The translations under genes and the position numbers were made by a program. Shown piece by piece: positions 8,704 through 9,159 of a DNA stretch of 64,000 nucleotides (position 1 is the first letter of the stretch; every line of letters starts with the position of its first letter). Under the pieces are notes generated by a model, which saw only the letters and a list, made by a program, of their open reading frames with translations, was not told where the DNA came from and ran no database searches. The stretch comes from a phage. The stretch is taken from the sequence record PX436236.1; one strand, given 5' to 3'.

Positions 8704-9159
8704 TTATTTTAGGTCTTCAGCCCAGTCGAGCTTCAAGGGTTCTTTATATTCTCTGTCTAAAACAACAGGAATCTGGACATCTCCACTAAAGCTAAGTGGT
8801 CCTACATTATAAGACAGGGTGATATGAGGGGTGTAATCATCAAAATCGTGCGTAGCACCTAAGGTACGAGCATACTGATGGCGGCATTTAAGATACTCTG
8901 AATTGAGAACCAAAACCAGGACAGGAGAATCACCGTGTTTCCATACTTCAAGATGTCCTGACGAAGCAACTTCAAAACTTCCGGATGCAACGGTGTATGG
9001 AACGTTGACTCTTGAATAGCAGATTGTAGAATGGAATTTTTCACGAGGAACTGGATTAGGAACCTTTAAAGTGCGCTGAAGGTTTTCCAGCGCATCTAAA
9101 GTTAATTCAGAGAATTTTGCAGCAACGTATAGACCTTGAGCAAAATCTTCGGTTTTCAT
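8704..9159 (-). CDS. 57B: gene 57B product, 2H-phosphoesterase family (Acb1-like anti-CBASS phosphodiesterase)
   Basis: 151 aa; two H-x-T/S motifs (FHSTICY, PHITLSY) typical of 2H/LigT fold; synteny 57B-57A-1 as in T4. Confidence 0.7.

Follow-up and report, generated by a model that had tools for sequence, protein, structure and literature searches.

A probable Dhakavirus orthologue of the T4 anti-CBASS gene acb1 (57B) at the edge of a plastic internal-protein region

The acb1 locus and its gene neighbourhood

The DNA analysed here (hereafter the window) is a 64,000-nucleotide stretch of phage record PX436236.1, which by megablast belongs to a Dhakavirus of the QL01/WG01/PSD9 type. On its minus strand, positions 8704..9159 hold a coding sequence of 151 amino acids plus a TAA stop codon (8704-8706), which we designate acb1 (gene 57B) on the basis of the list of open reading frames, Pfam matches and identities to T4, PDB and sister-phage proteins. 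The ATG at 9159 follows an in-frame ATA codon and is the earliest start available downstream of the in-frame stop. Overlapping plus-strand reading frames of 46, 38 and 104 amino acids are taken to be antisense by-products. The coordinates, the length and the motifs FHSTICY and PHITLSY that the first-pass annotation had given for this gene all agree with the list of reading frames and the translation.

Immediately upstream, at 9159..9404 on the minus strand, lies gene 57A, coding for the tail-fibre chaperone (Pfam GP57, E=1.8e-28). Its TAA stop and the acb1 ATG share one base (TAATG), an overlap that suggests co-transcription and translational coupling of the two genes. The wider order on the minus strand is that of T4: genes 4, 2, 3, 1 (dNMP kinase; Pfam DNMK, E=5e-90), 57A and 57B/acb1, then an internal-protein gene, homologues of trna.4, trna.3 and trna.2, tRNA-Met and tRNA-Arg. 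The adjacency of 57A and 57B is common to T4, T6, PSD9 and QL01, and 57B directly adjoins 57A even in T4-like phages as distant as those of Acinetobacter and Aeromonas; the position of 57B therefore reflects ancient inherited synteny. The gene sits at the border of the morphogenesis block, on the edge of a plastic region.

By consensus patterns and folding, acb1 would be expressed as the last gene of a 4-2-3-1-57A-57B run ended by a hairpin (see below). A candidate promoter for this run is a T4 late-promoter motif, TATAAATA, found by its consensus pattern upstream of gene 4 at 12130..12137 on the minus strand. Simple early and MotA-type (middle) consensus patterns, searched from gene 4 to acb1, had no match, leaving the late motif at 12130-12137, the only one of its kind upstream on this strand; a generic sigma-70 scan gave 17 sites where shuffled sequence would give 14.5, and so did no better than chance. 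Activity of Acb1 appears about 15 min into T4 infection (PMC9117128), and a late or delayed onset of acb1 expression would fit this timing. The same intergenic region, between gene 4 and gene 53, carries the late motif TATAAATA twice, back to back, at 12115-12122 on the plus strand and at 12130-12137 on the minus strand; 12115-12137 is where late transcription diverges in the T4-like baseplate/head-completion region.

Other features of the neighbourhood separate the window from its relatives. QL01 has a gene for a 'site-specific intron-like DNA endonuclease' between genes 3 and 2 (QL01 11106-11756) that the corresponding part of the window (10158-11667) lacks, hence a case of homing endonuclease presence and absence within a conserved morphogenesis block. 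The tRNA cluster of the window phage is much reduced, with two genes only (Arg-TCT and Met-CAT, 6821-6977, minus strand), whereas T4 has eight, together with segB, at this place. In the trna.3 homologue (7720-8148, minus strand), the program-made reading frame opens with a TTG, 16 codons ahead of the likely true start MYKVYADY..., and the added part runs into the trna.4 homologue (8102-8299); in QL01 and PSD9 the gene is annotated in a shorter form, of 135 amino acids.

PeSL cassettes, Ip9 and the question of an anti-defence island

Directly downstream of acb1, at 8650..8693 on the minus strand, a PeSL-type cassette combines a hairpin with an early-promoter-like element, GTTTAC-N-TGATACTAT. 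The hairpin spans 44 nt with a perfect 18-bp stem and has an RNA folding energy of -28.2 kcal/mol (z = -8.2). Judging from the consensus and from folding, the cassette likely both ends the acb1 transcript and provides the promoter of Ip9. A pattern search located a second copy of its 34-nt core at 8319..8352 on the same strand, downstream of Ip9; the core pattern thus matched twice, with 0 mismatches at the specified positions (two N wildcards), vs 0 matches expected by chance. These two PeSL-type copies (GTTTACAAGGTCTATAGGnnTGATACTATAGACC) flank the Ip9 gene, and in each an early-promoter-like combination of -35 and extended -10 elements is embedded in a hairpin. Both cassettes fit the PeSL consensus of the T4/PST group, TTTACW-N17-TAYWAT (PMC4122927). 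Krisch and colleagues have tied PeSLs (promoter-early/stem-loop) to modular shuffling in T4-like genomes (PMC4122927).

The gene between the cassettes, at 8355..8627 on the minus strand, codes for the internal head protein Ip9, with the capsid-targeting leader MKTYQEFIAE (phrog_7673 'internal head protein', E=2.2e-56); the QL01 homologue is annotated 'Ip9'. Ip9 is a neighbour of acb1 and separate from it. Whereas QL01 and PSD9 carry two internal-protein genes here, with Ip8 placed between 57B and Ip9, the window has Ip9 only. We compared window positions 8590-8710 with QL01 8640-8985 and PSD9 6450-6800: the window Ip9 gene opens with the Ip8-type leader and first codons (MKT..., ATGAAAACTTATCAAG), continues through the shared AATTTATC and then passes into the Ip9-type GCTGAATCTATT. 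An Ip8-type start is thus joined to an Ip9 body, which places the crossover inside the shared stretch coding for the capsid-targeting sequence, CAAGAATTTATC. The missing Ip8 is accounted for by this crossover in the capsid-targeting sequence. The plasticity that the first-pass annotation had seen in calling the region hyperplastic is real, in the form of PeSL cassettes flanking Ip9 and the absence of Ip8 by crossover.

The same annotation had gone further and proposed an anti-defence island, supported by the proximity of acb1 to internal proteins in the plural. A six-frame search of the window for the leader MK[ST][YF][QKE][ED]F returned nothing beyond Ip9, and with a single leader-bearing reading frame the plural is not borne out within the window. 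IPI of T4 is an anti-restriction protein, an inhibitor of GmrSD. To our knowledge, no other internal protein has a proven role against restriction, and Ip9, an injected internal protein, resembles IPI in the leader only. For trna.2, trna.3, trna.4 and the ten reading frames at 1253-6375, all PHROG matches were of unknown function, and no further anti-defence gene was found among them. As acb1 alone has a characterised anti-defence orthologue, the proposal of an island goes beyond the evidence; the position of 57B reads as ancient synteny with 57A and is not demonstrably an anti-defence island.

Identity, active site and probable function of the acb1 product

The only significant Pfam match of the 151-residue protein is PF23474, 'Anti-CBASS protein Acb1', which it matches over profile positions 1-144 of 144 with E=8.9e-59 and 197.8 bits vs a cut-off of 27 bits. 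BLASTP aligned it with T4 gp57B (NP_049750.1) at 129 identical residues out of 151 (85%), with 0 gaps and E=3e-100. The best PDB match was Acb1 of Erwinia phage FBB1 (7T26/7T27; E=1.2e-58, 65% identity over 140 residues). Proteins of Shigella phage PSD9 and Escherichia phage QL01 are 100% identical to the window product, the DNA of the gene is 99.8% identical to that of QL01, IME540, PSD9 and LHE83 by megablast, and tblastn against 50,697 phage records found a homologue in 1,471 of them. A single-sequence AlphaFold2 model was too poor for structural comparison (mean pLDDT 38.7, pTM 0.30), so the fold assignment rests on the identity to 7T26. Identity of 65% over 140 residues to a solved structure would, as a general rule, be enough to fix the fold. 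The matches to PF23474, T4 and 7T26 uphold the reading already made in the first-pass annotation, that 57B encodes an Acb1-like 2H phosphoesterase with both H-x-T motifs.

T4 gp57B is the protein that Hobbs et al. purified and named Acb1; their biochemical and genetic work showed that it degrades CBASS signals (PMC9117128). Their study (Hobbs et al. 2022, Nature 605:522) placed the HxT/HxT tetrad H44/T46/H113/T115 over the scissile phosphate (PMC9117128). The alignments put the first catalytic motif of the window protein at H43-S44-T45 (9025..9033, minus strand; T4 H44/T46), within FHSTICY at residues 42-48 (9016..9036), and the second at H112-I113-T114 (8818..8826, minus strand; T4 H113/T115), within PHITLSY at residues 111-117 (8809..8829). 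T4 numbers run one higher than those of the window, since the T4 annotation starts at an additional Met further upstream. Mutated catalytic histidines would have spoken against an active Acb1; in a careful alignment with T4 Acb1, both histidines and both threonines align to the T4 tetrad, and the histidines are intact relative to T4, to FBB1 and to a set of 11 sequences. In T4 Acb1 the change H44A/H113A abolishes catalysis (PMC9117128).

The ligand-contacting residues are likewise retained. In Acb1, Y12, W74, F107 and W147 stack on the bases and E141 contacts the adenine N6, and in the FBB1 structure lid residues 145-152 close over 3'3'-cGAMP (PMC9117128). The corresponding C-terminal lid of the window protein, placed by the T4 alignment, comprises residues 144-151, LDWAEDLK (8707..8730, minus strand), and includes W146 (T4 W147); E140 (T4 E141) sits just upstream, and the lid differs from that of T4 by a single conservative change, D149 to E148. 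Altogether, nine of nine functional residues are the same as in T4: Y11, H43, T45, W73, F106, H112, T114, E140 and W146, equivalent to T4 Y12, H44, T46, W74, F107, H113, T115, E141 and W147. We also aligned 11 homologues from Tequatrovirus, Jiaodavirus, Muldoonvirus, Krischvirus, Pseudotevenvirus, Hadassahvirus (Twarogvirinae) and Aeromonas and Vibrio phages, reaching down to 35% identity; Y11, H43, T45, H112, T114 and E140 are invariant throughout.

The gene is thus very probably, with a probability of about 0.93, the Dhakavirus orthologue of T4 acb1 (57B), encoding an anti-CBASS 2H phosphoesterase. The Acb1 family is already known and named, with a Pfam entry, crystal structures and genetics, and in its sequence the window copy shows no departure from it. 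Since the orthologue keeps every functional residue, what is known of T4 and FBB1 Acb1 should transfer to the window protein; we infer its enzymatic activity, substrate range and anti-CBASS phenotype from those two enzymes. By this analogy, it would act during infection as a metal-independent 2H phosphoesterase on CBASS cyclic di- and trinucleotides containing at least one adenosine (3'3'-cGAMP, cUA, cAAA, cAAG). Four aromatic side chains would stack on the bases while a glutamate reads the adenine N6; the H-x-T/H-x-T tetrad would then drive attack of the adenosine 2'-OH on the 3'-5' bond, cleaving 3' of the adenosine and linearising the signal via a 2',3'-cyclic phosphate intermediate. The CBASS effectors would stay inactive and abortive infection would be avoided. 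Metal-free cleavage of 3'3'-cGAMP, cUA, cAAA and cAAG 3' of adenosine has been reported for both T4 and FBB1 Acb1, and a T4 delta-acb1 mutant suffers a CBASS-dependent defect of more than 300-fold (PMC9117128). The accessible part of the supplementary text of Hobbs et al. (273 Acb1 proteins) contains none of the Dhakavirus names IME08, JS10, Bp7, QL01, WG01 and JS98.

Public labels on the orthologues are 'hypothetical protein', '57B' or 'RNA ligase', the last in many RefSeq records. With PHROG phrog_755, which is labelled 'RNA ligase' too, and a weak, sub-threshold Pfam match to 2_5_RNA_ligase2 (E=0.063, 13.8 bits vs a cut-off of 27 bits), these names could point to a generic LigT-like 2H enzyme working on RNA ends, as a 2',3'-cyclic phosphodiesterase or a 2'-5' RNA ligase, without a dedicated anti-CBASS role. 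Such a function is extremely improbable, given that the Acb1 model scores 198 bits vs 14 bits for the RNA-ligase superfamily model and that the T4 protein, 85% identical, is proven to degrade CBASS signals (PMC9117128). The match to the PF13563 family (LigT/2'-5' RNA ligase) is below the cut-off and partial. In the annotations and literature examined we found no experimental basis for the 'RNA ligase' label, which appears to have been carried over from the fold superfamily.

Granted that the protein is an Acb1, its substrate range might have shifted from that of T4, for example by gaining cGG or 3'2'-cGAMP or by losing cyclic trinucleotides; the first-pass annotation had allowed that specificity may differ. 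The 15% of residues that differ from T4 amount to 22 substitutions, clustered at residues 2-8, at 56-58 and in the loop 75-80, the rest being scattered and conservative apart from I43, which has become F42. Among these changes, F42 stands beside the first catalytic histidine, and the loop directly after the base-stacking W73 is rewritten by five changes, T4 76-81 TQDGST having become HGDSPV. Apart from F42, the differences fall in the N-terminal tail and at places on the surface or in loops where the family as a whole is variable; the position of F42, a hydrophobic one, is I, L or F among its members, and each of the 22 substituted positions varies in the 11-homologue alignment. All nine reported ligand-contact and catalytic residues are the same as in T4, among them the base-contacting Y12, W74, F107, W147 and E141 equivalents, so the sequence gives no hint of changed specificity. 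Moreover, FBB1 Acb1, which is only 65% identical and has F in place of W74 and Y in place of F107, still served as the structural model for T4 Acb1 (PMC9117128). We consider a shifted range very unlikely, and it is just as unlikely that the Dhakavirus-specific substitutions (the HGDSPV loop and F42) alter which cyclic nucleotides are cleaved, or at what rate. If they did, specificity could for instance be narrowed so that CBASS signals are destroyed while Panoptes decoy nucleotides are spared.

Panoptes-type systems fire once Acb1 depletes their decoy nucleotide, and carriage of Acb1 makes T-even phages sensitive to these guard systems (PMC13577387). Between the window and T4, acb1 is 72% identical in nucleotides and 85% in protein; by the Nei-Gojobori method pS is 0.77, which is saturated, and pN is 0.136, values that indicate strong purifying selection on the gene. 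Relative to the orthologue of a Klebsiella Jiaodavirus, dN/dS is about 0.07. A decayed gene or a Panoptes-escape allele is ruled out by the intact reading frame, the identical copies in sister phages and the strong purifying selection.

The main value of assigning the gene to acb1 lies in its correct annotation, the 'RNA ligase' label on public Dhakavirus copies being misleading. Two predictions also arise: the phage should form plaques on CBASS hosts whose signals are 3'-5' cyclic di- or trinucleotides containing adenosine, and it should be vulnerable to Panoptes-type guard systems. Both bear on host-range forecasts for therapeutic T4-like phages.

Comparison with known Acb1 proteins and the 2H superfamily

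With the 2H superfamily at large (LigT, PF13563), the window protein shares the two H-x-T/S motifs and, by analogy with Acb1, probably a duplicated beta-rich fold and an acid-base catalysis that needs no metal and passes through a 2',3'-cyclic phosphate (PMC9117128). The difference lies in the substrate, which for Acb1 is a cyclic-oligonucleotide immune signal rather than an RNA end. As a separate observation, the Acb1-family profile matches residues 482-615 of the Pam3 cyanophage portal protein (PDB 8hds; E=1.6e-10). The match covers the C-terminal ~130 residues, both H-x-T/S motifs included, and suggests that the virion portal carries a fused Acb1-like 2H domain.

FBB1 Acb1, solved in apo form (7T26) and with 3'3'-cGAMP (7T27), is identical to the window protein in the tetrad and in the equivalents of Y12, E141 and W147. 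It differs in having F and Y where the window (W73, F106) and T4 (W74, F107) have W and F, and its loop after that Trp/Phe is longer by one residue. Of T4 Acb1, the window protein would be a full-length orthologue that keeps the tetrad, the aromatic clamps on the bases, the counterpart of E141 and the C-terminal lid; its gene also holds the same genomic place, between 57A on the upstream side and an internal-protein gene on the downstream side. Relative to T4, the window protein is one residue shorter at the annotated N-terminus, and the adjoining internal protein is Ip9 in the window vs IPI in T4.
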